This document shows positions 2,976 through 49,876 of a DNA stretch of 64,000 nt, in pieces (within the stretch, counting starts at the first letter, position 1; each line of letters begins with the position of its first letter). The translations under genes and the position numbers were made by a program. The notes beneath the pieces were generated by a model. The model ran no database searches. It saw only the letters and a list, made by a program, of their open reading frames with translations, and was not told the origin of the DNA. The DNA comes from a virus: the UHGV virus genome UHGV-1550212; one strand, 5' to 3'.

Positions 2976-3575
2976 TCAAAGAATTTTCCAAGAAGCATTT
3001 GATGTCAAGTTCATTGTGATTGTTGTGCCGTCATCATCGACTGTCACAGACTCTGTGCTCAATACAAGAGTTGCTGCCGCAGCTGCTTGAGTAATACTAA
3101 CATTCAATGACTTGCCACCAGGTGTCGTCACTGTCAATACAAATGATTTCTGTTCAATTGTCAAATTTTGCGGTATTGTAACTTCAATTGACCAAGCAAA
3201 CTTTGCAATATATCCAGGGTCATTTGCAATTGCTGTGTCATTTGTTGCAGCGGCGCCATTTGCTGTGTACGCAGTCGGAATGCTAAGATTCGGATTTGTA
3301 GTTGCAAACTTAAGTTTTGCTGCGTTAGACTCACCAGAAACGACAATTTTTGTGGCAGCAGCAATCACATTATATGATGCTGTGCCTGACACAAATTCTG
3401 CAAGAGCAGCTTGGTTAATCGTCGTTTGCTTTGTAACTGTAGGTGTAGTCTTCGTTTGCACAGTCGCAATTGTGCTACGAATGCCTCTACCTGTATGAGC
3501 TCCTGCAGTAAATGCCAGGATATCATTGCCTTCACCAGACATTGGTGAACACTGCGCCCATATAGCTTTTGCCAT
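2976..3575 (-). CDS. BACON-like N-terminal-domain protein (tail/fibre associated)
   Basis: 199 aa, ATG confirmed; N-terminus MAKAIWAQCSPMSGEGNDILAFTAGAHTGRGIRSTIATV paralogous to the two neighbours. Confidence 0.55.
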   Translation of the reverse strand: MAKAIWAQCSPMSGEGNDILAFTAGAHTGRGIRSTIATVQTKTTPTVTKQTTINQAALAEFVSGTASYNVIAAATKIVVSGESNAAKLKFATTNPNLSIPTAYTANGAAATNDTAIANDPGYIAKFAWSIEVTIPQNLTIEQKSFVLTVTTPGGKSLNVSITQAAAAATLVLSTESVTVDDDGTTITMNLTSNASWKIL

Positions 3576-3646: not shown

Positions 3647-6600
3647 TTATCGAACAAGGAATGACGTACCAACAACCATATTCGGGATTGCCAAGCCATT
3701 GCCAGACTGGCTTACTGCAACTGTGCCACTTGTGTAACCTGACAATGCTGCAGTAATTGTTGCCGACCTGCTGTTATCTGAACCCCAGTTATTTGCAGCG
3801 GACAATGTCGAACCTCTGATTGTGAATGCGCCATTGTTCGATGAGTACGTTGGAGTAACCGCAGCATCTGATGTTGTAGACTGACCTGTCGTGTACTTTG
3901 TGACAGTTCGACCTGTCGTAGACAATGTTGCAGTGCCACCAGCAGCCCCAAAGCTTGTAACAGTTGAGCTGACAATCAGAGTCTTCGTAGTCGAAGTCAC
4001 ACTGTTGGCTTCCTGTGTAGCAGTGATTGCTTTTGAGCCAGTTTGACCATTCAACGCAACCGTCATATTGACTGTAGCGGTTCTTGCAGAACCAGCAGTT
4101 GTGCCACGATTTGCAGCAGTCAATGAACCGGTTGTACTACTGTTAAGCGTAAAGCCAGTAGTTGTAGCCATACTGTATGAAATTGTACCGCCAGATGTAA
4201 TAGTAGTTTTTGAACCACTTGTGTACGTTGCTGTCTGCGAGTATGCTGGCGTGCCTGTTGGAGTCTTTGTTGCACCTGCTGCAGCAAATGTTGCATATGA
4301 TGTTGCTGTAGTAACTGTGACTGCACTGTATGATACACTGTTAGTTGCTTGATAGACATCAAGTGCTTTTGTAGCAGTCTTAGACCCTTCACCAGTAGCA
4401 GTTGCAGTCAAAGTGCCAATCTTTGTACGAGCTTTAACTGTAGTGCCAAGCGATGATGCGCTGACTTTTGTGCTATACGCAATGCTAACTGAGCCTGCCC
4501 TTGTGCTGCCAGACGTATATGTAATTGTCTGTGATGCACTGATGCCAGACATTGATGCGACTTCACCACCGCCAGCAGGAATATCTGATACAGAACCACC
4601 AGAGATTGTTACTGCGCCATATGTCGTAATTGCATTTGCAGCTTGGTACACATCGACTGCTTTTGTTCCAGATTTGCCATTGACTGTTACAGTAACAGTA
4701 GATGTTGTAATCTTTGTGCGGGCTTTAGCAGTAGTGCCAAGTGAACTACCAGACACTGCGCCAGTAGACGTTGTTACACCAGTACCAGACCATGATTTGC
4801 TGCCGCCAGACGTAACTGTCTGTGTTGAGCCACTTGACCACGTAACTGATTGACTGAATGACACCGTAGGCGTAACTGAGCCGCCTTTTGCAGGAATATC
4901 ACCATAAGTCATCGAAACTGTTGGCATGCCATATGTAGCAGCATTAGCATTTTGAGATGCAGTAGCAGTCTTTGTTCCACTGATAGTCTTTGTGCCTGCT
5001 GCGTTGTATGATGCAGTTGGCGTCCATGTAGCCTTTACAGTCTTTGTGACTGTTGGCGATGTTGTTGCACCACTTGCAGTAGTGCCTTTTGATGATGCGG
5101 TTATAGCACCAGTAGATGCATTGAGTGCAGTGAACAATCCTGATGCGCCTGGCCAGCTATATGATGTTGTAGTTGACAATGAACCATACGTAGATGCTGG
5201 CGCAGTAGTTGAAGTACTGCCACTACTAAAGTGGTATGTTACTGTGTTTGCACCATTTGACGGTGTAGATGTTCCGCCACCTGCAGCAATTGCAGGATAT
5301 GACATCGAACCAACTGCAATATTGAGTGCAGTCACATAGTTGCCTGCCTGATAAATCGTTGCAGACTTGCTGGCAGATTTGCCATTCATTGTGACTTTAA
5401 CAGTCAGTGTACCTGCAGTAGTCTGGTTAGATATTGTAGTGCCCTTTGATTGCACAGTGACTGTCGATGTGTACTCAATTGTTCCGCCGCTTGTCAGTGT
5501 TTCTGTCGTCTTTTCACCAGTAGCATATGTCGTAGTTTTGACTTGCGAATAAGTTACTGTACCAGATTTTACAGAACCGCCGCTTGCTGCAATGATAGTT
5601 GCAGACGGTGTCAAGTTAACTGTGATATCGCTATATGTAACTGTGCCAGCAGATTGAGCTGCTTGATAAACATCTGCAGCTTTTGATGCAGACTTACCGT
5701 TGAGTGCTACTGTGACAGTTAATGTGCCAATCTTTGTTCGTGGCTTAACTGATGTGCCAAGTGATGATGCAGATATACCTGCTGCTGGGCTATATGAAAT
5801 TGTGCCACCAGTAGTAATGTTCTGAGTTGATGTTGATGTGTATGTAGCAGTCTGCGAATATGACACATTGCCACTCTTAATTGTACCACCAGTTGCAGGA
5901 ATATCTGCTACAGTGAAGCTTGAAATTGTAACTGCGCCATATGACACAGTGTTTGCAGCTTGCTTGACTGTGCAAGAACCAGTTTTTGTAACACCGCCCT
6001 CAGTGTATGAGCCAGAAATTGTAATGCTGCGTTCTGCGCCTACGACTGTTGTGCGATTTGCTGCAGTTACTGTAGTAGTCGACAATGTAAAGCCAGTTGC
6101 TGAACCGCTAAGTGTTGCAGATACTGCAGCAGATGACGTTGAGCCTGATGCATATGTGTATGACGCTGTTGAAGTGATTGTAGTTGAACCGCCACCAGCT
6201 GCCAATGTTGCAGCGCCAGGTGTCAATGTCAAGCCATTCAGCGTCTTTGAGTTTGCAGTTTGTGTTGCAGTAGCAGTTTTTGTAGCAGACTTGCCATTGA
6301 TTGCTACCGTAACTGTGACAGCATTTGAAGCATCAGTAGAGCCTACATATGATGTGCCCATTGACGTTACAGTCAATGCGCCACTTGTCGTATTCAATGT
6401 CCAGCGTGACTTAGCAGTCATTGCATAAGACAATGTAGCACCACTTGTCAATGTGCCACCTGAGCCAGCTACGCCATTCCAAGTCCAGACTTGTGAATAT
6501 GAAACAGTTGGGTTTGATGTACCACCAGCAGGAGCAATGTTTGAATATGAGAACGTTCCAATGACAGGCGTTTCATAGACTTTAGCGCCTGCAGCTTGGT

Positions 6601-7975
6601 TAAACGTGATGTCTTTTGATGCAGACTTACCATTTGCGGTGACTGTCAAGGTAACAACAAATCCATTACGTGCAGCAGTAGAATTGTTGTTTGTCACTGC
6701 GACATTCAAGCCAGATAAGCTATAGCCTGTTACAGCAGTTTTGACCGCAGCAGTCCATGTGCCACCTGATGTGTTGCTGTCAGTTGAACCGCTGCTGTAT
6801 GTCATTGACTGCGTAAATGTTGCAGATGCATTGGCTGCAACAGTTTGACCTGCTACTGCAAGAGCAACTGGTGTTGTCTTTGTAATGACTGGCGTGCCAT
6901 ATGTAATGCTGTTAGCAGCTTGTGTAATCGATACAGTAGCAGTTGCATTGCCATATGACGCTGTGCCACTAAATGACCGAGCATCACCGACAGTCTTGCC
7001 ACGATTTGCAGATGTTACAGAATTTGCAGATATCGTAAATCCTGTTGCAGTGCCAGTAATTGTAGGCTTGACATTTGTTTCAGTAGATGTAACAACACCA
7101 TTCCATGTTACAGTGTAAGTGCCTGTGATTGTTGATGTTCCACCTGCTGCAGTATGACTTGTTGAATATGCGTTCAGAGCAAGTTTGTATACGACTGAGC
7201 CTGCTGCTTGTGAACATTTAACAGTCTTCGATAAGTCATGACCACTTACAGTCAGTGTTGGTGTAACTGCTGCAGTTGATGCATTGTTCGGTGTATTGAC
7301 AGTGATTGTTACAGGGCCTGTGCCAGATGCTTTTGAGACTGACCAACCTGCAGGTACGCCTGAAATTGTCCATGCAAAGTCAGGGTTACAAGAAATTGCG
7401 AATGTTTTCGATTCACCCTTTGCAACAAATGACAGAGTTTCTGGTGATACTGCCAATGTTGCACTTGCACCAGCTTGATTTACAGTAAATGCTGCAGACT
7501 CGCCACCAGGCGTTGACAATGTAAAAGTGAACGCCTTTGCAGCGATTGCAGTATGTGCATCAATCTGCACTCGTACAATCACTTCAAATTCAGCATTGAC
7601 ACCAGGGTCATTGTCAAAGTTTGTGTTGAGCTCGTAGTTTTTGCCTGCAACAGTCACGCCAAGCACTGTGCCGCTTGCAGTACCACCAGTACTGCCAAGC
7701 ACAAGTTTTTGTGCATTTGTGACGCATTTCAATGTTGCAATAGTGCCACCATTTGACGCAATGTTTGTAGATGCAACTGTAGCTCGTATAGTTTCACCAG
7801 GAGACTCTTGCAATACTGCACAGTTTTCAGTTACTACTGGTGAACCTGTAGTTGTTTGCGCAGTAAAGCTGCCAGACCTGTTATTTCGACCAGTATGCAC
7901 AGATGCTTTGACAGACAACTGTGAGTTGCCTGTGCCAACATCAGGTGTAACTGTCAACCAAGTAGGCTTTGCCAT
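3647..7975 (-). CDS. large tail fibre/adhesin-like protein with BACON-like N-terminus and tandem Ig-like repeats
   Basis: 1442 aa, ATG confirmed; BACON-like N-terminus, then very Thr/Ser/Gly/Ala/Val-rich repetitive beta-rich sequence with recurring GGT.SG, LNGKSASK and VYQA motifs typical of Ig-like repeat arrays. Confidence 0.6.
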   Translation of the reverse strand: MAKPTWLTVTPDVGTGNSQLSVKASVHTGRNNRSGSFTAQTTTGSPVVTENCAVLQESPGETIRATVASTNIASNGGTIATLKCVTNAQKLVLGSTGGTASGTVLGVTVAGKNYELNTNFDNDPGVNAEFEVIVRVQIDAHTAIAAKAFTFTLSTPGGESAAFTVNQAGASATLAVSPETLSFVAKGESKTFAISCNPDFAWTISGVPAGWSVSKASGTGPVTITVNTPNNASTAAVTPTLTVSGHDLSKTVKCSQAAGSVVYKLALNAYSTSHTAAGGTSTITGTYTVTWNGVVTSTETNVKPTITGTATGFTISANSVTSANRGKTVGDARSFSGTASYGNATATVSITQAANSITYGTPVITKTTPVALAVAGQTVAANASATFTQSMTYSSGSTDSNTSGGTWTAAVKTAVTGYSLSGLNVAVTNNNSTAARNGFVVTLTVTANGKSASKDITFNQAAGAKVYETPVIGTFSYSNIAPAGGTSNPTVSYSQVWTWNGVAGSGGTLTSGATLSYAMTAKSRWTLNTTSGALTVTSMGTSYVGSTDASNAVTVTVAINGKSATKTATATQTANSKTLNGLTLTPGAATLAAGGGSTTITSTASYTYASGSTSSAAVSATLSGSATGFTLSTTTVTAANRTTVVGAERSITISGSYTEGGVTKTGSCTVKQAANTVSYGAVTISSFTVADIPATGGTIKSGNVSYSQTATYTSTSTQNITTGGTISYSPAAGISASSLGTSVKPRTKIGTLTVTVALNGKSASKAADVYQAAQSAGTVTYSDITVNLTPSATIIAASGGSVKSGTVTYSQVKTTTYATGEKTTETLTSGGTIEYTSTVTVQSKGTTISNQTTAGTLTVKVTMNGKSASKSATIYQAGNYVTALNIAVGSMSYPAIAAGGGTSTPSNGANTVTYHFSSGSTSTTAPASTYGSLSTTTSYSWPGASGLFTALNASTGAITASSKGTTASGATTSPTVTKTVKATWTPTASYNAAGTKTISGTKTATASQNANAATYGMPTVSMTYGDIPAKGGSVTPTVSFSQSVTWSSGSTQTVTSGGSKSWSGTGVTTSTGAVSGSSLGTTAKARTKITTSTVTVTVNGKSGTKAVDVYQAANAITTYGAVTISGGSVSDIPAGGGEVASMSGISASQTITYTSGSTRAGSVSIAYSTKVSASSLGTTVKARTKIGTLTATATGEGSKTATKALDVYQATNSVSYSAVTVTTATSYATFAAAGATKTPTGTPAYSQTATYTSGSKTTITSGGTISYSMATTTGFTLNSSTTGSLTAANRGTTAGSARTATVNMTVALNGQTGSKAITATQEANSVTSTTKTLIVSSTVTSFGAAGGTATLSTTGRTVTKYTTGQSTTSDAAVTPTYSSNNGAFTIRGSTLSAANNWGSDNSRSATITAALSGYTSGTVAVSQSGNGLAIPNMVVGTSFLVR

Positions 7976-19064: not shown

Positions 19065-20123
19065 TTATGAACGTCTTGTTAACAATGCATGACCACAATC
19101 ATAAACTGCAACATAGCCAGTGTTAAGCATCTCTTGCTCATCTTGGCCGGCGTCTACAATATGTTCTTTGCTGTTAAGTTTGACCCAGTGCTTGCAGATT
19201 GTTGATTTATCATCTGACAATTTAGGGTTAATGCAGAAGTCTGTTGAGTTTATTGTGTTGTCGAGATGTTGTTTGATGACATCGACAACTTGCTCTGGTG
19301 TCATCCAATCAAACACTGTTATGCAAGTGTAGCCATATTTGAGAGCAAGTTGAGCTTTGTTGAAGTGATAGTCGAATGGAATTGGATGATTGTGTTTTGA
19401 TTTGCCAATTGCATATGCATAGCCATATGTAGAGTTGTGACTGATTGTTGGGCAAATTTCAATCAGCAAATGCTTATAATGCAGGTCATATGACTGGCGT
19501 TCAATATTGACGTCATCACAGTCAAATGCAAGCCCAAGTTCTTGTAACAGCAAAGTTTGCCATCGTTTGTTTGTAGCTGATATGACATTTTTGTGAGCAT
19601 TGCGACATTTTTGATGCATACAAAAGAATGGGACACCATATTTTTGCTGCATCAATTTAGTGTCAATGCCTGCTGCATTGCCATAACGTTCAAGCTTCGT
19701 TGCTCTAATTTTGTCAGCATCACCCCAAATGTTGCCATATCGTTTGCGCTTTGTGTCTTGAGACTTCTTAATGTTGCCACTGCGGTTGCCATAAATAAGT
19801 TCCTTTGATTGACACGCATGTTCAGCAGCATCTGGCCCATATATGTGACCGTATTTTTGAAGCTTAATTTCATTGATACGTTCTACTGGGCCATTTGGAT
19901 GACCATAGCGTTCTTGTTTGATGCGTTTTGTGTGCTCAATTGTTGACTTTAATGCAAGCTTTGACGTGACGCCAAATTTGCGCAAACAGCCTATTCTAAT
20001 ATTGAAACTACGTTTAATATGTGATGCTTCTATTTTTGTAACAGCCAATTGCAATGCATCATCACGTTCAGTTTCAAGCATGCAAATTTGTTCATCAATT
20101 GTCATAGCATCAAACCATTTCAT
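19065..20123 (-). CDS. homing-endonuclease-like protein, paralogue 1 (tandem R/K-YG repeats plus C-terminal putative nuclease domain)
   Basis: 352 aa, ATG confirmed. Five repeats of the type K.ERYGHPNGP / KLQKYGHIYGP / RKRYGNIWGD / LERYGNAAG / QQKYGVP, then a conserved C-terminal block (YDLHYKHLLIEICPTISHNS ... VYDCGH) shared with 35290..36585 and 48845..49876; free-standing between conserved genes. Confidence 0.4.
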   Translation of the reverse strand: MKWFDAMTIDEQICMLETERDDALQLAVTKIEASHIKRSFNIRIGCLRKFGVTSKLALKSTIEHTKRIKQERYGHPNGPVERINEIKLQKYGHIYGPDAAEHACQSKELIYGNRSGNIKKSQDTKRKRYGNIWGDADKIRATKLERYGNAAGIDTKLMQQKYGVPFFCMHQKCRNAHKNVISATNKRWQTLLLQELGLAFDCDDVNIERQSYDLHYKHLLIEICPTISHNSTYGYAYAIGKSKHNHPIPFDYHFNKAQLALKYGYTCITVFDWMTPEQVVDVIKQHLDNTINSTDFCINPKLSDDKSTICKHWVKLNSKEHIVDAGQDEQEMLNTGYVAVYDCGHALLTRRS

Positions 20124-35289: not shown

Positions 35290-36585
35290 CTATTGTTTGC
35301 GTTGTAATGTCAGTAGTCCACAGTCATATACAGGTAAAAATCCTGCAGCATTGTAGTCTTCTGCATGTGATATGTCATTGTCTATAAAATGCTCACCAGT
35401 TCGCATATTATGCCAATGACATTGTATAACATTGCTTACTAATTTATAGTCATCTACATATTTTGTAGGGTCTTCTTTTGACAAGTCTATTGTAATAACG
35501 TCGGCAGTTTTCAATTGTTCTGTGTCATCGATGATTGACTTTAGCAATGCGACAATTGTATCAGCGTCATCCCAATCCCAAATTGTGACGCATCGATAGC
35601 CTTGCGACATTGCTTTGCAACATTTGTCTGCATGACTATTTGCATGTCTATGCCAATTTGCTGCAGAGCGGCCTGTCATATACTCAAAGCTATACGCACT
35701 ATTATGCGTAAACGTTGGATTGATTTCAATTGCTATGTTCTCATAGCGTAAGTCATATGTAAATGATTCTATTTGCGGTTGCTCAAACTCAAATTGAACG
35801 TTAAGCGATTCTAACAAGTATCGTTGCCACCATTGATTTTGCTTAGATATGATGTGACCTTGCGCAAGTTTACAATGTGTAGTCATGCAATAATATGGCA
35901 CACCATAACGCATCATATTTGTACGTACAACTGCTTGTGTGCGTCGTTTTAAGTCACCGCCCCACTTGTTGCCATACCGTTCAAGCTTTGTTTGCGTTGC
36001 CAGTTGTATATTCACACATCCATTTGCTTTGCCATATCGTTCAAGTTTGACTTGCGTAATTTTGTCCATAGGCCCAAATGCATTACCAAATTGTGCAATC
36101 TTTGTAGCTTTCATTTTGTCAATATTGCCAACACCTTTGCTGCCAAATCGAACAAGCTTAGTGTCGCCAACTTTGCATTTAACATCATGCAATTGTGATA
36201 TGAATTCTACACCGTATTTGAGCAAGTTATTGATGCGACCATTATAACGCTGTTTAATGATGCCATGCGATGTTTTGCGTGGTGCATAACGAACAAATGG
36301 TGTATTAGCAAGTTCAGCATCTCGCAATTCTTCAAGTTCTTTTATTCGAGCTGCATGTTCAGATGCGTTATCATATTGCAACGCGCCAGCATGACGTTCA
36401 TATGGCAATCTTCCATGCTTACGTATGAAAGCAATTTTGTTTGCATATTGCACACGTATCTTACTATGTGTAGATACTCTTGCGCTTAATTTTGCATATG
36501 GCGTTTCTGCAATCAATTTATCACGTTCAGCTTCAAGTTCTTTTATTCGAGCTTCAAGAGCATCACCAGTTAGTCGTTCAGCCAT
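35290..36585 (-). CDS. homing-endonuclease-like protein, paralogue 2 (with internal N-terminal module duplication)
   Basis: Track ORF 35290..36633; start placed at ATG 36583-36585 (MAERLTGDALEARIKELE). Coiled-coil N-terminal module present twice (nt 36300-36360 and 36500-36560 share CTTCAAGTTCTTTTATTCGAGC), R/K-YG repeats, C-terminal block IEINPTFTHNS ... VYDCG. Divergently adjacent to the terminase start. Confidence 0.4.
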   Translation of the reverse strand: MAERLTGDALEARIKELEAERDKLIAETPYAKLSARVSTHSKIRVQYANKIAFIRKHGRLPYERHAGALQYDNASEHAARIKELEELRDAELANTPFVRYAPRKTSHGIIKQRYNGRINNLLKYGVEFISQLHDVKCKVGDTKLVRFGSKGVGNIDKMKATKIAQFGNAFGPMDKITQVKLERYGKANGCVNIQLATQTKLERYGNKWGGDLKRRTQAVVRTNMMRYGVPYYCMTTHCKLAQGHIISKQNQWWQRYLLESLNVQFEFEQPQIESFTYDLRYENIAIEINPTFTHNSAYSFEYMTGRSAANWHRHANSHADKCCKAMSQGYRCVTIWDWDDADTIVALLKSIIDDTEQLKTADVITIDLSKEDPTKYVDDYKLVSNVIQCHWHNMRTGEHFIDNDISHAEDYNAAGFLPVYDCGLLTLQRKQ

Positions 36586-36652
36586 TGTGCATGAATGTTC
36601 AATATGTAAATTCACTATATGTACATATAACACGAATATTCAAGTTAGATGC

Positions 36653-38644
36653 ATGGCTGAAGTCAAGAATCAAGTGTTTAATCCAGTAGCACAATTCAAA
36701 TCTGCTGAAGAAAAAGAAGCTGCGAAAGTTATATGGTGCAGTGAATCAGTCGCAATGGCATATGATGCAGTTGACCAAGGCTTGCCACTTAGAGCAAATC
36801 CGTGGTTCTTTGGCAATATTGCACTGCGTAAGCCCGGATTGCTATACAGATACACTGACATAGAATTGCGTGAATGGCTTAGATGCAAGTATGACATATT
36901 ATATTTTGCTGACACATGGTGTCAGATTTTAACTCCAGATGGCACAAGAAAGCATTTTAATTTGAGACCATATCAACGCAAAATGCTGCGTGCATATCAA
37001 CGACAAAAGTATACGATAGTTCTTACTGGGCGACAAGTAGGCAAAACGGTCGTTACATCAGTATTTCTCGCTTGGGCAGTCATTTTCAATCGTGAGCTTA
37101 ACATAGCAGTACTTGGCGACCGCTTGGCAACATCAAGTGAAAACCTGAACAAAACAAAAGACATCATAAACAATCTGCCGTTCTTTATGAAGCCTGGTGT
37201 GTTTGTTTGGAATGGCGGAATGGTCGCATTTGACAATGGTTGCAAAATTATCACAGGTACTGCTCAAAAGTCATCACTTGTCGGTAAGACAATTCACATC
37301 TTATATCTTGATGAGCTCGCAATTCCACCTGCTCAGCAATCAAAGACTCTTGTAGATTATGCATTGCCAACAATTGCGTCATTGCCAACTGGCAAAGTTA
37401 TCGTAACATCTACGCCATCTGGTGATAATGTGTTCAAGACTTTGTGGCTTGGTGCAATTAACAAAACAAATGGCTTCTTTCCAATTCAAGTAAACTGGTG
37501 GGATATTCCTGGCCGTGATGAAAAGTGGAAAGCTGAGCAAATCGCAATTCTTGGTGAAGATGCTTTCAATGAGCAATACAACTGCGTGTTCTTGTCAGGT
37601 GCAACGTCAATTTTCAATTCAAGAGCAATTGATGATATTGCAAGACGACAGCAAAAGTATGAATTTGTTGCTGATGAGCGTCTTGAATCACTACTCAGAT
37701 TCTTCATTGCTGATTCAGATGTCGGCACTGAACCCGAGCCGCACTCATTTATGACTTGGCGTGCAGATATTGACCCAGCAACACTCAAAAATGAAACATG
37801 TATCATCAATATTGACATTGCTGAAGGTTTATCTGGCGACTTTTCTGTCATACATGTGCATCGTATAGTTGACATTACAAAAGATGTTGAACTTGAACTT
37901 GATGCAAGCAATCTGTATGATATGTTTGACGATGACAAAAAATCATTGTTTGCAAAAGCAGTTGAAATGCAACGTCAAATGTCAGCAACACAAGCTCAAG
38001 ATGATGACGATGATGACGATGACGACTGGTTTGGCGCAGACGATGATGTCGCTCAAGGCGTTGATGCATATCAAGATTATGCGAATGCTGCAGTAGAAGA
38101 GATTGGCTTATGGCGTTCAAATGTGACATCAATCAAAGTCATGGCTCTGTATTTGCAGTTCTTAATGACGTATGTGTTTGATGCAAACAAAACAAAGATT
38201 ATCTATGAACGCAACAAATATGGTGGAGAGTTTCGTTCATATTGTTTGTCTGAACGTGCACGCAATATTGCAATTGATGAAGAGAGCTTCGTAAGCTTCC
38301 AACGAACTCTTGGTTCAGAACAACTTGCACCAGGCTGTTCAATTACGCCTGGCACCAAACCAGTGTACGTAAGACAGCTCAAAGACCTTATTGAAACTGG
38401 CAAGATTCTTGAAAACAATGCAGATACGCAAAGAGAGCTTACATATTTTGGCGGTGTCAAAGGCAAGAATGGTCACGTGTCATATCAGGCGTCACCTGGC
38501 TTCCATGATGACATTGCAATGACTCTTGTATCTCTTGCAGCATTTATGGACACTCGATGCAATGACTGGCTTGAACTGCTTGATGTGTTCTACAATGGCA
38601 GCAGTCAAACAAGTTCTGATGATGACGATGATGACTGGATTTGA
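36653..38644 (+). CDS. terminase large subunit
   Basis: ATG at 36653 (MAEVKNQV); the track's 36425 start overlaps the neighbouring minus-strand gene. ATPase motifs LTGRQVGKT (Walker A) and ILYLDELA (Walker B), followed by a nuclease-type C-terminal half. Contains an internal D9-W-F tract (38000-38029) and ends DDDDDDWI. Confidence 0.7.
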   Translation: MAEVKNQVFNPVAQFKSAEEKEAAKVIWCSESVAMAYDAVDQGLPLRANPWFFGNIALRKPGLLYRYTDIELREWLRCKYDILYFADTWCQILTPDGTRKHFNLRPYQRKMLRAYQRQKYTIVLTGRQVGKTVVTSVFLAWAVIFNRELNIAVLGDRLATSSENLNKTKDIINNLPFFMKPGVFVWNGGMVAFDNGCKIITGTAQKSSLVGKTIHILYLDELAIPPAQQSKTLVDYALPTIASLPTGKVIVTSTPSGDNVFKTLWLGAINKTNGFFPIQVNWWDIPGRDEKWKAEQIAILGEDAFNEQYNCVFLSGATSIFNSRAIDDIARRQQKYEFVADERLESLLRFFIADSDVGTEPEPHSFMTWRADIDPATLKNETCIINIDIAEGLSGDFSVIHVHRIVDITKDVELELDASNLYDMFDDDKKSLFAKAVEMQRQMSATQAQDDDDDDDDDWFGADDDVAQGVDAYQDYANAAVEEIGLWRSNVTSIKVMALYLQFLMTYVFDANKTKIIYERNKYGGEFRSYCLSERARNIAIDEESFVSFQRTLGSEQLAPGCSITPGTKPVYVRQLKDLIETGKILENNADTQRELTYFGGVKGKNGHVSYQASPGFHDDIAMTLVSLAAFMDTRCNDWLELLDVFYNGSSQTSSDDDDDDWI

Positions 38645-38651
38645 TTTGTGA

Positions 38652-38709
38652 CACATCATCACAAAACAAGCCAGCAGAATTGTCTGCTGGCTTGTTTTGT
38701 GATGATGTG
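38652..38709. terminator. long perfect hairpin between convergent genes (bidirectional terminator)
   Basis: 27-bp arms CACATCATCACAAAACAAGCCAGCAGA / TCTGCTGGCTTGTTTTGTGATGATGTG with a 4-nt loop; between the terminase stop (38644) and the DHFR stop (38713). Confidence 0.6.
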
Positions 38710-38712
38710 CTG

Positions 38713-39216
38713 TCATCGTTTTCGATGGAAGACTTTGAATTTGTATCGTAACGTTCTGTCATTATCTGTGCATGTGTATAGTGCAGACTCAGATTTTTTA
38801 GTCCACATTCGCCAATTGACTGCAGGAAATCGAACGTCGCCTTCAGCATAATTGTCAATCATCGTCAAGTACATTCTGTCTGCATAAATCATTGCTTCTT
38901 CAAACAACTTAGAACCGCCGATGATAAACATGTTAGACGCAAATGCAGACTTGCAATATGCTATTGCATTGGCTAGCGTGCTAAATACGAAATAGTCGCT
39001 TGTTGGCTGCAATGTAGAGCTTATAACAATGTTAATTCTGTCGGGCAAGGGCTTGCAATTCATCGACTCAAAAGTCTTACGACCCATGATGACAATGTGA
39101 TTCTTTGTGAGTTTCTTGAAGTGCTGCAAGTCATGTGGAATATGCCAGGGCAAATCACCATTGCGACCTATGACATTGTTATTTGATACTGCTGCTATGA
39201 TATTGATGTATTGCAT
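38713..39216 (-). CDS. folA: dihydrofolate reductase
   Basis: 167 aa, ATG confirmed. IIAAVSNNNVIGRNGDLPWHIP...IVIMGRKTFESM...FIIGGSKLFEEAM aligns motif-for-motif with bacterial/T4 DHFR (IAALAVDRVIGMENAMPW...VIMGRHTWESIG...MVIGGGRVYEQFL). Confidence 0.8.
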   Translation of the reverse strand: MQYINIIAAVSNNNVIGRNGDLPWHIPHDLQHFKKLTKNHIVIMGRKTFESMNCKPLPDRINIVISSTLQPTSDYFVFSTLANAIAYCKSAFASNMFIIGGSKLFEEAMIYADRMYLTMIDNYAEGDVRFPAVNWRMWTKKSESALYTCTDNDRTLRYKFKVFHRKR

Positions 39217-41835: not shown

Positions 41836-43740
41836 CTACAAAGATTTGAACAATTCCTCGTATGTTACAATTTTCTTGCCTTTTGCAAGTGCTGCTTTCA
41901 TTTTGTTCGACAGCTTGTTGACATCATTTGTGACAACATAGTCACATGCATCAATGTTTGCACCGACATCTTCAAGCTTACCATTTGCTGCATCAATAAA
42001 TGCGCCTTTTGTAGCCCAAGTAGGCTTAGGCGAGCCCGTCATGACAACTTTGATTGCTGCATCATTTGTAGACGTCTCTTTATGCATTTCATTAAACATT
42101 ACGAAGCATTGCGGAAAATGCTTGAGCAATCTTTGTATGACATTCAGCTTTATGAGCTTGTCAATTGGCTCCATGCTCAAGCCCTTAAAGTCATACTGAC
42201 AATTGCTGAAGTATGCAGATAACTGATACGCTGCTTTGCTGCCAAGACCAGGAATCTGCATGCATTCAATGAAATGCGATAAGTAAATGCTACTGAAGCG
42301 TTCACGTAAGCCTGCAATGACTGTACGGTCATTTTTGCTGTTTGTGTCAAACTGCAGCAGCTCAAACAGTCGTTCATTGTCAACTTCTTGCACAATGCAG
42401 AACAAGTCTTCAATTGTGGGCGCATCAGAGAATGTCAACATGACATCAAGATTGTCTTGTGCAATAAGCAAAGCCTCGCAAATTTTCGTAGCATAAACCC
42501 AACCAAGCCCATCGATGTTAAGCTTGCAAACGCCTTTGATAAACCTCGTGCATCTTGCAAATTCCTCAGGCATCATCAAGTGAATGCCATCGACATATGC
42601 ATGTACAGGAATGTCAGCTTTGCTGATATCACCAGGTTCAATACATTCTTGAATGTCTGGAATAATGTCGCCGCCCTTTTCAATACGAACAAGAGCGCCA
42701 GGCCAAATGTCATTTGCATGCAAAAAGCCATAGTGAAATGCTGAAGCTGCTTTTACTGTAGTGCCATCAAGCTCAACAGGCTCAAGTTCAACTCTCGGAA
42801 AAAGCTCACCATTGATTCGCTGACGCCAATCAATTCTAGTCACTCGAGTTACAGCAGACATTGCATCAAGCTTCAATGCAACCATGTTTGCGTATTCTGC
42901 TGCATTTGCAAACTGCTGCTCAATCCACAAGTCATCTGCAAAAGGCTTGACTACAATGCCATCAATGCGATATTTGAATTCTGGGCGTTCATTAGCAATT
43001 TTTGTGCAAGTTTCTGCAAACTCATTGTAATCAGTGACTTCAAAGACTTCTGCAATGAATTCTGCAGGCCAGCCAACTTTAGCAAGAGCATCTGCAGGAT
43101 TGGTTTGCTCATATGTTTTGCCATCAAGTGTGTCAGTCAACATGTATGCCATAGGGTCAATGTCTTCCATGCCACACATATCTAATGACTTCACAAATGC
43201 CGCAGCAGTATTACGCTCATTTTTGTATTTAACTGAGCCATCAGAGTTGAAGTGATACTTTTGTGCAAAAATGTCTTTTGCAATGACAGCTTCAAAGCGA
43301 ATCTGATATGGCTGTTCTGCTGCAGCAAGCTGCATCGGCACTTTGCCTGCTACAACAAATTTGCGCGTGACATCATAGCCCGTATAGCCATCACCACGAG
43401 TAACAACTTTTAGCAATCTGCCATCAGTGTCGTAATGTGCTTCACAGCCCATGCCGTCATACTTGTGCATAAGTAACATTTTATAACCAACAATGTTGCA
43501 CACAATATCATGCAATGTGGTTGTAAACTGTGACTTTGTGTGAATTGCAGCAAGACTTAATGCAGGTGTAAGATGCTTAACTTCTTGCTTGTTTGACTCT
43601 TCAAAACGAATCTTATGTTTAATGTCATCATTTGCAAGAAGCTGCTGTTCAAGAGCATCAAATGCATCATCAGACATTATCGGATTGCCCGCATAATATG
43701 CAGCTATAGCGTCATGGTACGTATTGAGCATGTCAGTCAT
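41836..43740 (-). CDS. ligA: NAD-dependent DNA ligase
   Basis: 634 aa, ATG confirmed. Adenylation motif HKYDG (KxDG) and VTRGDGYTGYDVT (LigA motif TRGDGxxGEDVT). Confidence 0.7.
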   Translation of the reverse strand: MTDMLNTYHDAIAAYYAGNPIMSDDAFDALEQQLLANDDIKHKIRFEESNKQEVKHLTPALSLAAIHTKSQFTTTLHDIVCNIVGYKMLLMHKYDGMGCEAHYDTDGRLLKVVTRGDGYTGYDVTRKFVVAGKVPMQLAAAEQPYQIRFEAVIAKDIFAQKYHFNSDGSVKYKNERNTAAAFVKSLDMCGMEDIDPMAYMLTDTLDGKTYEQTNPADALAKVGWPAEFIAEVFEVTDYNEFAETCTKIANERPEFKYRIDGIVVKPFADDLWIEQQFANAAEYANMVALKLDAMSAVTRVTRIDWRQRINGELFPRVELEPVELDGTTVKAASAFHYGFLHANDIWPGALVRIEKGGDIIPDIQECIEPGDISKADIPVHAYVDGIHLMMPEEFARCTRFIKGVCKLNIDGLGWVYATKICEALLIAQDNLDVMLTFSDAPTIEDLFCIVQEVDNERLFELLQFDTNSKNDRTVIAGLRERFSSIYLSHFIECMQIPGLGSKAAYQLSAYFSNCQYDFKGLSMEPIDKLIKLNVIQRLLKHFPQCFVMFNEMHKETSTNDAAIKVVMTGSPKPTWATKGAFIDAANGKLEDVGANIDACDYVVTNDVNKLSNKMKAALAKGKKIVTYEELFKSL

Positions 43741-43972
43741 CGTCTTCTTCTGTTAAATCATTTTCTTCTACCAATGTGTCGGTTGTGTCAATATCTGGAA
43801 ATTCGTAGTTGTTAGGTCGTTTTACGCTAATGTCATGCAAATGCTTCATAAGTTTATCACGAGTCATAAAGAACGTGTTATTATTATCATTTGCATACAT
43901 TAAGGGTTTTGCTGTAGATTCATATGTAGTTGCCGTGCATACATACAACGGCGAGCCATTCAGTGTTGGCAT
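43733..43972 (-). CDS. hypothetical small protein, acidic C-terminus
   Basis: 79-aa ORF, ATG confirmed; ends LTEEDDD; overlaps the ligase start by 8 nt. Confidence 0.35.
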   Translation of the reverse strand: MPTLNGSPLYVCTATTYESTAKPLMYANDNNNTFFMTRDKLMKHLHDISVKRPNNYEFPDIDTTDTLVEENDLTEEDDD

Positions 43973-48844: not shown

Positions 48845-49876
48845 TCAATTTTGCACAGCATGACCGCAATCGTACACAGGCAAAAAGCCTGCGTCAAGCA
48901 TCTCTTGTGTATCTTGTCCACAATCTTTAACATATTGTCGTGTTTTGAAATTATGCCAATGCTTATGAATTGTTGACTTGTCATCTGACAGCTGTGGATT
49001 GAGCGCGAAGTCAGTCGAGTCTACTGGTTCACCTGCAAGATGCTTTCTAATGGCATCAATGACTTCATTGTCATCCATCCATTCGAATATTGTAATGCAA
49101 GTGTAGCCATGCTTGAGAGCAAGCTGAGTTTTGTTGAAGTGATAGTCGAATGCAAGTGGATGATTATGCGTTGATTTGCCCATTGCATATGCAAATCCAT
49201 ATGCTGCATTGTGTGAAAACGTTGGGTTAATTTCAATGAGCAATTTGCAATGTTCATTGCTGTAGTTCAAATCAAATGAAAATCTATGCAATGAAATTTC
49301 ATCATAGCCACAATTGATGCAAAGTTCTTGCTGCAGTTTATCATGCCAATATTTGTTTATCGCTGAAATTGGGCGACCATTTGCATCTCTGCATCTCTTT
49401 GTCATGCAAAACCATGGCACACCATATCGTTGCAGCGTTGTTGCATTGATTTTTTGTTTAGGCCCAAATGCATTGCCATACAAGCGTTGTTTTGTTTCAA
49501 GCATTTTGTTAATGTTGCTTAGAGAGTCACCCCACTTTGCTCGTTTTGTTTCAATTGATTTTGCGACGTTGCCCCATGCATTGCCGTAGCGCTCTAAATT
49601 TGTTTGTCGTTGTTTAGCGACATTGCCCATGCCATTGCCATATTTTGCACGTTTTGATGCAACCATTTTCGCAGCAACATCTTTGCATTGATTGCTATGT
49701 TCTACACCATATTTGTGCAAACATGCTATTTTTCGATTGTACTTTGTTTTAATTGCGCCATGCGATGTTTTACGTGGCGCATATCTCACAAATGGCGTTT
49801 CTGCAAGCAATTTGTCTCTTTCCTCTTCAAGTTCTTTTATGCGAGCTTCAAGAGCTTCTCCTGTCAATTTTTCCAT
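48845..49876 (-). CDS. homing-endonuclease-like protein, paralogue 3
   Basis: 343 aa, ATG confirmed. N-terminus MEKLTGEALEARIKELEEERDKLLAETPFVRYAPRKTSHG nearly identical to paralogue 2; R/K-YG repeats; C-terminal IEINPTFSHNAAYGFAYAMGKS ... VYDCGH. Sits between the helicase terminator and the clamp-loader promoter. Confidence 0.4.
   Translation of the reverse strand: MEKLTGEALEARIKELEEERDKLLAETPFVRYAPRKTSHGAIKTKYNRKIACLHKYGVEHSNQCKDVAAKMVASKRAKYGNGMGNVAKQRQTNLERYGNAWGNVAKSIETKRAKWGDSLSNINKMLETKQRLYGNAFGPKQKINATTLQRYGVPWFCMTKRCRDANGRPISAINKYWHDKLQQELCINCGYDEISLHRFSFDLNYSNEHCKLLIEINPTFSHNAAYGFAYAMGKSTHNHPLAFDYHFNKTQLALKHGYTCITIFEWMDDNEVIDAIRKHLAGEPVDSTDFALNPQLSDDKSTIHKHWHNFKTRQYVKDCGQDTQEMLDAGFLPVYDCGHAVQN

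Follow-up and report, generated by a model that had tools for sequence, protein, structure and literature searches.

The large terminase (TerL) of a human gut phage of roughly 176-181 kb carries two runs of consecutive aspartates, each followed by a tryptophan: one lies inside the nuclease domain (D9-W-F) and the other forms the extreme C-terminus (D6-W-I). The gene is located in a 64,000-nt stretch of virus genome UHGV-1550212, referred to here as the window, and its product is a T4-type terminase. Judged from its relatives, the C-terminal tract appears to be an extreme form of a conserved feature, while the internal tract is, according to alignment and structure modelling, a variable, low-complexity part of a clade-specific acidic and aromatic disordered loop. 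By analogy with other terminases we lean towards a tail (D6-W-I) that docks the enzyme on the portal or prohead, accompanied by a clade-specific acidic loop (D9-W-F). The poly-Asp runs as such amount to low-complexity elaborations of an ordinary kind and do not constitute a new system.

Identification of the terminase gene and its domains

The terminase gene (36653-38644, + strand) encodes 663 aa followed by a TGA codon, and is the sole large + strand gene inside a long block of - strand genes. The mechanically delimited ORF spans positions 36425-38644, but the ATG at 36653 was accepted as the real start because it is also the start called on independent public contigs and the homologs are 662-664 aa long. 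The 76 additional upstream codons overlap a homing-endonuclease-like gene on the opposite strand and are used neither by gene callers nor by homologs, so the longer form was rejected.

An earlier note on this DNA had recognized the protein as a terminase large subunit, and this is borne out by database and structural matches. The ATPase part matches Pfam Terminase_6N (PF03237; E=8e-22), the protein matches T4 gp17 in the PDB (E=3e-46), and a Foldseek search with its predicted model retrieved gp17 structures 3ezk and 3cpe (E ~1e-34). The core of the ATPase domain (aa 123-323; 37019-37621) was delimited from the Pfam match, invariant residues and the alignment to T4. It contains a Walker A motif, TGRQVGKT (37025-37048), aligned with SRQLGKT of T4, and a Walker B motif with the catalytic glutamate, ILYLDEL (37298-37318), aligned with T4 IYIDEC. 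The protein thus has the N-terminal ASCE ATPase of this class (Walker A pattern G/S-R-Q-x-G-K-T, Walker B hhhhDE), and residues G130, K131, T132, D220 and E221 are invariant in a 30-sequence alignment.

The RNase-H-like nuclease domain (aa ~362-650; 37736-38602) is interrupted by the insertion described below. No match to Pfam Terminase_6C was obtained for the C-terminal half at E values up to 10, whether the insertion was kept or removed in silico, and the assignment is therefore based on PDB and Foldseek matches, supported by the AF2 model, and on invariant residues. HMMER aligned the C-terminal part with the C-domain of T4 gp17 and with the RB49 gp17 nuclease (3c6a; E=2.4e-4), while Foldseek gave a target-normalised TM of 0.70 against the RB49 and G20c nucleases. 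The candidate catalytic residues, D388 (37814-37816), E519 (38207-38209) and D619/D620 (38507-38512), are invariant in the alignment and correspond to the D401 region and the HDD of T4, in keeping with the Asp/Glu/Asp triad of RNase-H-fold nucleases (D401, E458 and D542 in T4). In the AF2 model the strands follow the order b1 (383-388), b2 (398-407), b3 (479-489), a helix, and b4 (514-519). As in other T4-type enzymes, putative functions of the protein are packaging and cutting of DNA.

Genomic context and nearest relatives

Directly after the TerL stop codon there is a long, near-perfect hairpin (38648-38716) with a predicted RNA folding energy of -50.3 kcal/mol (z = -9.9 relative to shuffled sequences). 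It separates the terminase gene (+) from a convergent - strand gene matching Pfam DHFR_1, and is probably a bidirectional terminator; it belongs to the context of the gene and lies outside the protein feature considered here. No portal, small terminase or adaptor was found in the window by comparison of 20 proteins with PHROGs, nor were homologs of T4 gp16, gp18, gp19, gp20, gp21 or gp22 found there by tblastn and phmmer. The ORFs upstream of TerL in the relatives, screened by tblastn, likewise yielded no portal, small terminase or adaptor.

A nucleotide-level comparison with a phage database gave no match, and the terminases of the nearest isolates share just 31-40% identity with that of the window. 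The nearest cultured relative is the terminase of Chryseobacterium phage MA9V-1 (WIC41526.1; 40% identity), annotated merely as a "terminase family protein", for which we know of no functional work. It has a similar acidic and aromatic insertion (...DDYYNNLLNPSDSLDYMVDGDDDFQMGDDLFEDYDIYW...) as well as an acidic-aromatic tail (...EVDDFYGDGFDEWVG), but differs in the absence of a homopolymeric Asp run and in its origin, the host being a Chryseobacterium and the source sewage.

The C-terminal tail and its conservation

The tail of TerL, SQTSSDDDDDDWI (aa 651-663; 38603-38641; net charge -6), follows the last predicted helix (637-648). Its six aspartates (aa 656-661) are encoded at 38618-38635 and the final W-I at 38636-38641, followed by TGA at 38642-38644. 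The sequence and coordinates of the SSDDDDDDWI-stop that the earlier note had placed at the extreme C-terminus (38618-38644), and those of the internal D9-W-F, were confirmed. That note had also proposed structure prediction; in the AlphaFold (AF2) model both tracts have pLDDT values below 50, so both are probably disordered. Such predicted disorder is one half of what the note had named as counting against its docking motif, the other half being a lack of partner binding.

The octapeptide DDDDDDWI is invariant in all 14 members of the cluster whose sequences include the C-terminus. The relatives L009 and L010 carry two synonymous codon swaps in this part, yet the six Asp residues are retained. 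More distant conservation was assessed in two sets of relatives, the first composed of the 25 nearest representatives of clusters formed at 90% identity (93% to ~32% identity) and the second of 142 representatives with pairwise identities of at most 50%. Down to ~32% identity, the relatives mostly retain an acidic tail that finishes in an aromatic or hydrophobic motif, in forms such as DDGFGI, DDGYGL, DDYDLY and EDDYW. In 22 of the 25 nearest representatives the net charge of the last 20 residues is no higher than -4, and most of these have an aromatic residue among the last five; just five of the 59 window proteins show so low a charge. The aromatic criterion is weak by itself, because 53% of unrelated window proteins also have such a residue in the last five positions.

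In the second set an acid-aromatic end was defined as a C-terminal 10-mer with at least four D/E, at most one K/R and an aromatic residue in the last four positions. Such ends were found in 18 of the 142 representatives versus 1.4% of internal 10-mers, which is a ~9-fold enrichment (p=1.6e-12). They occur in 9/12 representatives inside the clade that carries the nuclease insertion and in 9/130 outside it (p=8.5e-5), these counts not being phylogenetically independent. A separate poly-Asp tail was observed in an unrelated T4-type lineage, where P0225 ends with ...RYDDDDDDDF. All 55 sequences of four sister clusters keep the terminal G[FY]G[IL], with the upstream acidic run varying by one residue in either direction. 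The terminal aromatic residue is not universal: P0002 (74% identity) ends with ...DYDEDDD and P0023 with ...DEDAED, while the tail of P0014 is basic.

The Asp homopolymer is confined to relatives of at least 74% identity, whereas acidic segments are present throughout the clade. Alignment with related phages had been suggested as a way to recognize lineage-specific insertions; this description fits the homopolymer but not the acidic segments in which it is embedded.

The acidic insertion in the nuclease domain

The internal D9 run (aa 450-458; 38000-38026) and the following W-F (38027-38032) are found in the context ...QAQDDDDDDDDDWFGADDDV... and are encoded by (GATGATGAC)x3 with one mismatch. 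Among the cluster members of at least 90% identity, 12 of 13 have nine aspartates at this site and one has ten. The tract belongs to an acidic, aromatic-studded insertion in the b2-b3 hairpin of the nuclease (aa 408-478; 37874-38086), delimited from the AF2 model and the alignment. This segment of 71 aa has a net charge of -18 and contains seven F/W/Y residues; together, the insertion and the tail account for -24 of the net charge of -28 of TerL. Its predicted layout comprises helices 408-420 and 427-450, a disordered acidic stretch and a short helix at 470-476, with pLDDT of ~38-62 overall and below 50 at 411-421 and 445-471. The helix 427-450 bears a conserved Y-D-x-F...F-x-x-A motif.

The equivalent hairpin segment is 42-102 aa long in the clade versus 25-28 aa in T4-like outgroups, and the insertion is present in just 12 of the 142 representatives, the usual (median) hairpin length being 25 aa. 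Across the clade, ~20-43% of its residues (mostly 30-36%) are D/E and it contains 3-11 aromatics; its sequence is otherwise poorly conserved. The acidic loop may serve as a second docking element or as an electrostatic regulator.

Repeat DNA and tract length

Asp runs of this length are far beyond chance: at an Asp content of ~8%, one would expect ~1e-7 D9 runs in a protein of 663 aa. The two tracts of TerL are the only D/E runs of six or more residues among the 59 predicted proteins of the window, and both are followed by Trp, an amino acid that makes up 2% of TerL. As the earlier note had pointed out, the tracts are encoded by nearly the same GAT/GAC repeat, their first 18 nt, (GATGATGAC)x2, being identical. 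The tract DNA is a short tandem repeat of the 9-nt unit GATGATGAC.

We considered and rejected a DNA duplication or gene conversion between the tracts. In the register ending at TGG they share 22 of 24 nt, which is what codon usage leads one to expect: GAT and GAC are used in balance for Asp across the window (675 and 624 codons, respectively), and the calculated probability that the two codon patterns match, given poly-Asp, is ~0.07-0.1. For this reason the DNA identity is no evidence of duplication. Moreover, the codon patterns of the two tracts differ from each other in L009 (89% identical).

Indels among the relatives concentrate in the acidic runs. In close relatives (identity of 90% or more) single codons are occasionally gained or lost there, while the terminal motifs remain constant. 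These length changes are consistent with slippage, to which the repeat had been predicted to be prone.

Comparison with known terminases and acidic tails

The T4 gp17 protein (PDB 3CPE/3EZK) shares with the window TerL the Terminase_6N ATPase and the RNase-H-like nuclease, and the Walker A/B and D/E/D residues of the two proteins correspond. It differs in having a short b2-b3 hairpin (...IIDVTDDVWEQVG...) instead of the 71-aa acidic insertion and a C-terminus (...VPVSHGMSMV) without an acidic-aromatic end in place of D6WI, and the window nuclease domain is too divergent to match Pfam Terminase_6C. A T4 gp17 truncated by about 33 C-terminal residues is reportedly functional in vitro.

A closer precedent for the tail is provided by gp19 of phages T3 and T7. 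The C-terminal region of T3 gp19 bound proheads experimentally, and residues 571-576 were mapped as the core prohead-binding site and 577-586 as an anchor, according to the summary of Morita, Tasaka & Fujisawa (1995) given in PMC3276506. The T3 protein ends with ...LYWEDDDVNGDRFINW, the mapped site being LYWEDD + DVNGDRFINW, and T7 gp19 with ...YSEDDEGYGTSFIEW / ...VYSEDDEGYGTSFIEW. Like these, SSDDDDDDWI of the window TerL and ...DDDGFGI or ...DDGYGL of the sister clades are flexible segments at the extreme C-terminus after the nuclease, in which an acidic run stands beside aromatics and the chain closes with a hydrophobic or aromatic residue, and the tail is conserved under selection among the relatives. 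The likeness is one of composition and pattern: the tails are not alignable as homologues, the window tail is shorter with an acidic part of pure Asp, and gp19 belongs to another TerL subfamily (T7 gp19 matches PF22530, and Terminase_6N only marginally).

TerL C-terminal tails are regarded in the literature as binding the portal or procapsid, although there is disagreement over which TerL end is turned towards the portal, and one group now suggests, as a speculation, that the tails attach to hexons of the capsid and not to the portal. A literature search for an acidic tail in a terminase returned nothing relevant. A site of the type that D6-W-I could occupy is known from the head-tail adaptor of phage P74-26, whose flexible C-tail lies in a portal clip cleft, with the terminal Phe entering a hydrophobic pocket and with complementary electrostatics (PMC12407722); this is, however, another protein, which acts after the terminase has departed.

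The earlier note had compared the acidic tail with that of bacterial SSB proteins, and this part of its interpretation does not hold as a class assignment. The consensus of the SSB C-terminal tip, which follows a disordered linker and binds clients such as Exo I, RecQ, PriA and chi, is DDDIPF, whereas the window TerL ends with D-D-D-W-I and its relatives with GFGI, GFGL, GYGL, YDLY, DDYW or DDD; both sequence and fold identify the protein as a terminase and not as an OB-fold ssDNA-binding protein. The acidic C-tails of T7 gp2.5 and gp4 end in Phe, and in the T7 replisome such acidic tails dock on basic patches. These tails and the SSB tip resemble D6-W-I as disordered acidic docking peptides for basic patches with a hydrophobic or aromatic end, but they belong to other families with other end motifs and replication partners, so the likeness is of mechanism alone.

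Possible functions of the acidic segments

The suggestion that the tracts form a docking motif remains the best reading of the C-terminal one, because this type of tail is conserved, resembles that of T3 gp19 and agrees with the literature on TerL tails. The binding partner and the binding mode are inferred, in contrast to the terminase identity, the predicted disorder, the position of the tracts and their conservation pattern, which the analysis demonstrates. D6-W-I would be this lineage's homopolymeric version of a flexible TerL tail that tethers the packaging motor to the procapsid at its portal vertex. The acidic run may steer the tail electrostatically onto a basic surface, and the terminal Trp-Ile (G-F/Y-G-I/L in sister clades) may plug a hydrophobic pocket, comparably to the mapped T3 gp19 site (LYWEDD + ...FINW) and to adaptor tails in portal clip clefts. 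The internal D9-W-F is most likely a second element of the same physicochemical type, which could provide an auxiliary contact with the portal, capsid or small terminase, or else act as an electrostatic regulator. Selection would act on the composition of the loop and not on its exact sequence, with replication slippage shifting tract length by single codons.

A different view is that both tracts are neutral low-complexity expansions, produced by slippage of the 9-nt GATGATGAC unit in two tolerant, exposed, disordered segments; they would have no dedicated partner and would at best promote solubility in an unspecific way or act as an "entropic bristle". The predicted disorder, the tandem repeat DNA, the one-codon indels concentrated in acidic runs at 90% identity or more, and the restriction of the homopolymer to relatives of at least 74% identity all fit this view, and the poorly conserved insertion sequence and variable length of the poly-Asp part are as expected of a neutral region. 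Nevertheless we think it unlikely, since acidity and embedded aromatics persist at both sites to ~32% identity, within each cluster the WI or G[FY]G[IL] at the end does not vary, six Asp survive synonymous changes, acid-aromatic C-termini are ~9-fold enriched over internal windows in the 142 representatives, and mixed GAT/GAC codons are less prone to slippage than a pure repeat. An idea considered and not adopted was that the poly-Asp might store metal ions (Mg/Ca) for use by the nuclease. Rather improbable, in our opinion, is that the loop, the tail or both are intramolecular DNA mimics folding onto a basic DNA-binding surface of the ATPase or nuclease, and keeping the nuclease or the DNA grip off until the portal or small terminase displaces them. 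The ATPase domain is indeed basic (net +8, pI 9.1, against -24 in the insertion and tail), the insertion is located within the nuclease domain, and the TerL nuclease must be held off during translocation, for which steric-block models exist in the literature. Acidic tails of the T7 replisome bind basic patches, and that of gp2.5 competes with ssDNA for its own binding cleft. However, the AF2 model, based on an alignment of just 30 sequences, places neither segment confidently on the TerL body (pLDDT <50). The b2-b3 turn lies at the end of the sheet, distant from the catalytic carboxylates as far as can be deduced from RNase-H topology, an invariant terminal hydrophobic motif suggests a pocket and not a DNA groove, and most T4-type TerLs, with a median hairpin of 25 aa, control their nuclease with no loop of this kind.

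It is very unlikely that the tail imitates that of SSB, hijacking the pockets in which replication and recombination proteins of the host or phage bind SSB tails, and so coupling packaging to DNA metabolism. The likeness to DDDIPF and to the Phe-ending tails of T7 gp2.5 and gp4 is superficial: the W-I end has neither a penultimate Pro nor a terminal Phe, the sister-clade ends GFGI, GYGL, YDLY and YW show no convergence towards the SSB consensus, the fold is that of a terminase and not the OB fold of an SSB, and a closer precedent exists within the terminases. We consider it extremely improbable that the acidic insertion is an immune-evasion decoration hiding the conserved fold of the enzyme from STAND sensors of the Avs type, which recognise large terminases. 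With the Avs3-terminase complex 8dgc among the structural matches, TerL is known as a target of defence, and the insertion is clade-specific and fast-evolving, yet its composition is conserved and not diversifying, and the tail would be left unexplained.

A docking tail might also be combined with the loop in one co-evolved two-part module that couples docking to nuclease control, although we would give this proposal only a slim chance. The loop and an acid-aromatic tail occur together in 9/12 representatives of the clade. Such a module could provide two flexible hooks per TerL subunit on the portal vertex, a bivalent tether bridging the 5:12 symmetry mismatch; in another version, the loop would be a DNA-mimicking nuclease brake that is released once the tail engages the portal.

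Significance

Two points are still argued, namely how a terminase pentamer stays attached to the dodecameric portal and which of the TerL ends is turned towards the portal. A strictly conserved, short acid-plus-aromatic C-terminal peptide, recurring in many T4-type terminases and matching in pattern the sole finely mapped prohead-binding peptide, that of T3 gp19, is a simple experimental handle on this question, useful for peptide competition, of the kind already performed with the T3 hexapeptide in an in-vitro packaging assay, as well as for point mutants and multimer modelling. The phage group in which it was found is abundant in human-gut metagenomes. The acidic nuclease-hairpin insertion marks a distinct terminase subclade, in which it may be a regulatory add-on. 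If the two-part module were true, it would represent a coupling of docking and nuclease not previously described, in a large group of gut/Bacteroidota phages.

Identification of the large terminase and its aspartate tracts

Several lines of evidence agree that the 663-aa protein encoded at 36653-38644 (+) is a T4-type large terminase. It matches Terminase_6N in Pfam (E=8e-22, aa 123-323), and phmmer searches of the PDB retrieved T4 gp17 (3ezk/3cpe, E ~1e-46) and the RB49 gp17 nuclease domain (E=2.4e-4). The AlphaFold2 (AF2) model (mean pLDDT 82; shallow input alignment of 30 sequences) had T4 gp17 as its best Foldseek match (E=5e-35), with a target-normalised TM of 0.70 against isolated terminase nuclease domains. 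The 30 homologs show no variation in Walker A (TGRQVGKT), Walker B with the catalytic Glu (ILYLDEL) or the nuclease carboxylates D388, E519 and D619/D620. The protein was found on 128-181 kb contigs from human-gut metagenomes. Its nearest cultured relatives are those of Chryseobacterium phage MA9V-1 (40% identity) and Sphingomonas phage PAU (31%), and no nucleotide-level match was found in the phage database.

The mechanical ORF (36425-38644, +) includes ...QAQDDDDDDDDDWFGADDDV... and terminates in ...SSDDDDDDWI-TGA. Gene calls on public contigs with exactly identical protein place the start in biological use at ATG 36653, and homologs have 662-664 aa. The internal tract (D9; aa 450-458, nt 38000-38026, +) is followed by W459-F460, and the C-terminal tract (D6; aa 656-661, nt 38618-38635, +) by W662-I663 and the stop codon (38642-38644). 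The sequence of 37900-38760 thus confirms the two poly-Asp tracts, each ending in an aromatic-containing pair, described in an earlier note. They are the only D/E runs of at least six residues in the 59 predicted proteins of the window, and the calculated expectation for D9 in a protein of this composition is ~1e-7; the feature is real and non-random. Both tracts are copies of the 9-nt unit GATGATGAC (3.0 internal, 2.0 C-terminal; Tandem Repeats Finder) and their first 18 nt are identical, so the proposed shared GAT/GAC repeat exists, but its DNA identity is uninformative because Asp codon usage (675 GAT and 624 GAC in the window) makes the match expected, given the amino acids (calculated p ~0.07-0.1). 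Codon order differs between the tracts in an 89%-identical relative.

An acidic insertion in the nuclease domain

Both tracts lie inside segments of the AF2 model with pLDDT <50 (1-4, 411-421, 445-471 and 651-663), and both are predicted to be disordered, one half of a refuting condition in the earlier note. The modelled nuclease domain follows RNase-H strand order: β1 383-388 (D388), β2 398-407, β3 479-489, a helix, and β4 514-519 (E519). The β2-β3 hairpin therefore carries a 71-aa insertion (408-478) that contains the internal tract; at this place T4 gp17 has merely ...IIDVTDDVWEQVG.... This insertion is composed of a helix (408-420) with a moderately confident second helix (~427-450), the motif LYDMFDDDKKSLFAKAV, conserved in the clade of at least 55% identity (relatives have EYDDFTTDERAAFREAV and DYDNFTDEQRQSFRDAL), a disordered acidic stretch containing D9-WF, and a short helix (470-476). 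Net charge is -18 in the insertion and -6 in the tail, and only -4 in the remainder of the protein; the ATPase domain carries +8. RNase-H topology predicts that the β2-β3 turn lies opposite the catalytic end of the sheet, so that a protruding interaction arm is slightly favoured over an active-site lid.

A search of 5.8 billion proteins yielded homologs graded from 93% to about 30% identity, and every alignment member down to ~32% has the hairpin insertion (42-102 aa, about 20-43% D/E, mostly 30-36%, with 3-11 aromatic residues), compared with 25-28 aa in T4-like outgroups. A second, exhaustive search was used to compare 142 full-length representatives (50%-identity clusters), whose hairpin segment has a median length of 25 aa. 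Only 13 of them reached at least 40 aa, and the 12 of these with at least 20% acidic residues were all among the closer relatives (E 1e-76 or better). The insertion is present in the MA9V-1 terminase and absent from those inspected of phage PAU and Tenacibaculum phage PTm1. Lineage specificity, which alignment was to decide, thus applies in the strict sense to the pure Asp homopolymer, which is limited to the closest relatives (a 74%-identical one has DDDYDDDDDYYD), while the acidic insertion extends much further.

Many related terminases (e.g. P0100, P0216 and P0250; 800-1070 aa) are considerably longer and align in 3-4 separate stretches; the Pfam intein domain PF14890 is present in some. 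Their genes appear to be intein-interrupted; the gene studied here has no intein.

Conservation and variation of the C-terminal tail

In 22 of the 25 closest representatives (90%-identity clusters), the last 20 residues sum to a net charge of -4 or lower, a level reached by only 5 of the 59 other window proteins. Typical ends are DDDGFGI, DDGYGI/L, DDIGFGL, DDLDDYDLY, AYYDDY, EDDYW, DFDMFY and EDSIF; among the exceptions, P0002 ends in DYDEDDD, P0023 in DEDAED, and the tail of P0014 is basic. A tail rule (last 10 residues with at least four D/E, at most one K/R and an aromatic in the last four) applied to 18 of the 142 C-termini versus 1.4% of internal 10-mers from the same proteins (binomial p=1.6e-12), and to 9/12 in the insertion clade versus 9/130 outside it (p=8.5e-5), both values being phylogenetically uncorrected. 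P0225, an unrelated public T4-type representative (667 aa, ~33% identical, without the insertion), ends in ...LPNLFKRYDDDDDDDF (...RYDDDDDDDF), an independent poly-Asp-aromatic tail. Sister-clade terminases P0003-P0013 end in an invariant DD-G-[FY]-G-[IL]. T7 gp19 has DDEGYG eleven residues before its end, a likeness that may be convergent.

Members of the protein's own cluster (at least 90% identity) have D9 as the internal tract in 12 of 13 cases and D10 in the remaining one, and all 14 that extend to the C-terminus end in DDDDDDWI. The D10 variant reads (GATGATGAC)x3+GAT and keeps six tail Asp despite two synonymous swaps. Across four sister clusters (55 sequences), indels are limited to the N-terminal low-complexity region, the internal acidic stretch, and the tail acidic run with adjacent residues, while the last four residues, G[FY]G[IL], are unchanged throughout. 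Composition of the acidic runs is therefore constrained and their length loose. This is compatible with the slippage suggested earlier. The terminal aromatic/hydrophobic motif shows, in these alignments, position-specific conservation, and the pattern fits a putative electrostatic run leading into a short linear docking motif.

Genomic context

The terminase is the sole sizeable + strand gene in a ~64-kb - strand block (about 99-63951) containing tail and baseplate genes and genes for a sigma factor, NAD-dependent DNA ligase, 5'-3' exonuclease and topoisomerase II. Small terminase and portal genes were found neither adjoining it nor elsewhere in the window, which also yielded no candidate tail-binding partner. 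Directly 3' of the stop codon, between the convergent terminase (+) and DHFR (-) genes, a near-perfect hairpin (38648-38716; 31+5 bp; -50.3 kcal/mol, z = -9.9 vs shuffles) is probably a bidirectional terminator; a simple terminator scan did not pick it up.

Three homing-endonuclease-like paralogs (19065-20123, 35290-36588 and 48845-49876, all -; mutual identity 32-43%) have in common N-terminal ...LTG(D/E)ALEARIKELE and C-terminal ...VYDCG. One, matching PHROG 3339 (homing endonuclease), lies on the opposite strand directly upstream of the terminase and runs into the ORF's 5' extension from 36425, which was rejected as spurious given this overlap and the gene calls. Sister phage L014 has a TnsA-like endonuclease at the equivalent position. 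Apart from the terminase, only a 79-aa ORF (43733-43972, -) overlapping the DNA ligase gene end has a strongly acidic tail in the window (...TDTLVEENDLTEEDDD, net -11 over the last 20 residues). Three consecutive ORFs (2305-2919, 2976-3575 and 3647-7975, all -) share a homologous N-terminal module of ~200 aa (starting MAKP/AxWL..SP, 28-36% identity), whose homolog in sister phage L015 (4123-4734) gives a weak BACON-domain match that hints at a Bacteroidota host.

Possible functions of the tracts

Known terminase C-termini, read directly, are ...MELYWEDDDVNGDRFINW (T3 gp19), ...VYSEDDEGYGTSFIEW (T7 gp19), ...YARALSGEDE (lambda gpA) and ...VPVSHGMSMV (T4 gp17); the D6-W-I tail is a new, extreme member among known tail elements. 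T4 gp17 lacking its last ~33 residues is reportedly tolerated in vitro, which counts against generalising a docking role. As summarised in PMC3276506, the core prohead-binding site of T3 gp19 comprises residues 571-576 (LYWEDD by our count) and its anchor 577-586 (Morita et al. 1995). A contact of the terminase C-terminal tail with portal or procapsid has been proposed to keep the nuclease away from DNA, and an alternative model puts the ATPase domain on the portal (PMC5389665). In a portal-adaptor complex, the portal clip cleft takes up the adaptor C-tail, whose terminal Phe sits in a hydrophobic pocket and whose charges complement those of the cleft, and terminase tails were speculated to bind capsid hexons (2025 preprint, PMC12407722). 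We hold with modest confidence that the tail docks the packaging motor on the portal vertex: a basic surface would attract its acidic run over long range, and the terminal W-I would insert in a hydrophobic pocket. The docking suggestion of the earlier note agrees with the tail's conservation. The internal loop, a clade-specific second acidic/aromatic element, has a less certain role: it may make an auxiliary contact (portal, capsid or small terminase) or regulate the nuclease electrostatically.

Neutral low-complexity expansion of the tracts, with which loose tract length could be reconciled and the constant terminal residues less easily, is unlikely. Intramolecular autoinhibition by DNA mimicry is somewhat more doubtful still. 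The likeness to SSB tails holds only as a mechanistic analogy, and acidic tails ending in Phe are also in use in the T7 replisome; hijacking of SSB clients is nevertheless very improbable, since neither the end motif nor the carrier protein matches the SSB C-terminus. That the insertion serves Avs evasion we regard as scarcely credible. With portal docking as the preferred reading, the terminase is an ordinary member of its family with a conserved docking-type tail in unusually pure poly-Asp form, and the acidic insertion in its nuclease hairpin is an undescribed feature that defines a terminase subclade.
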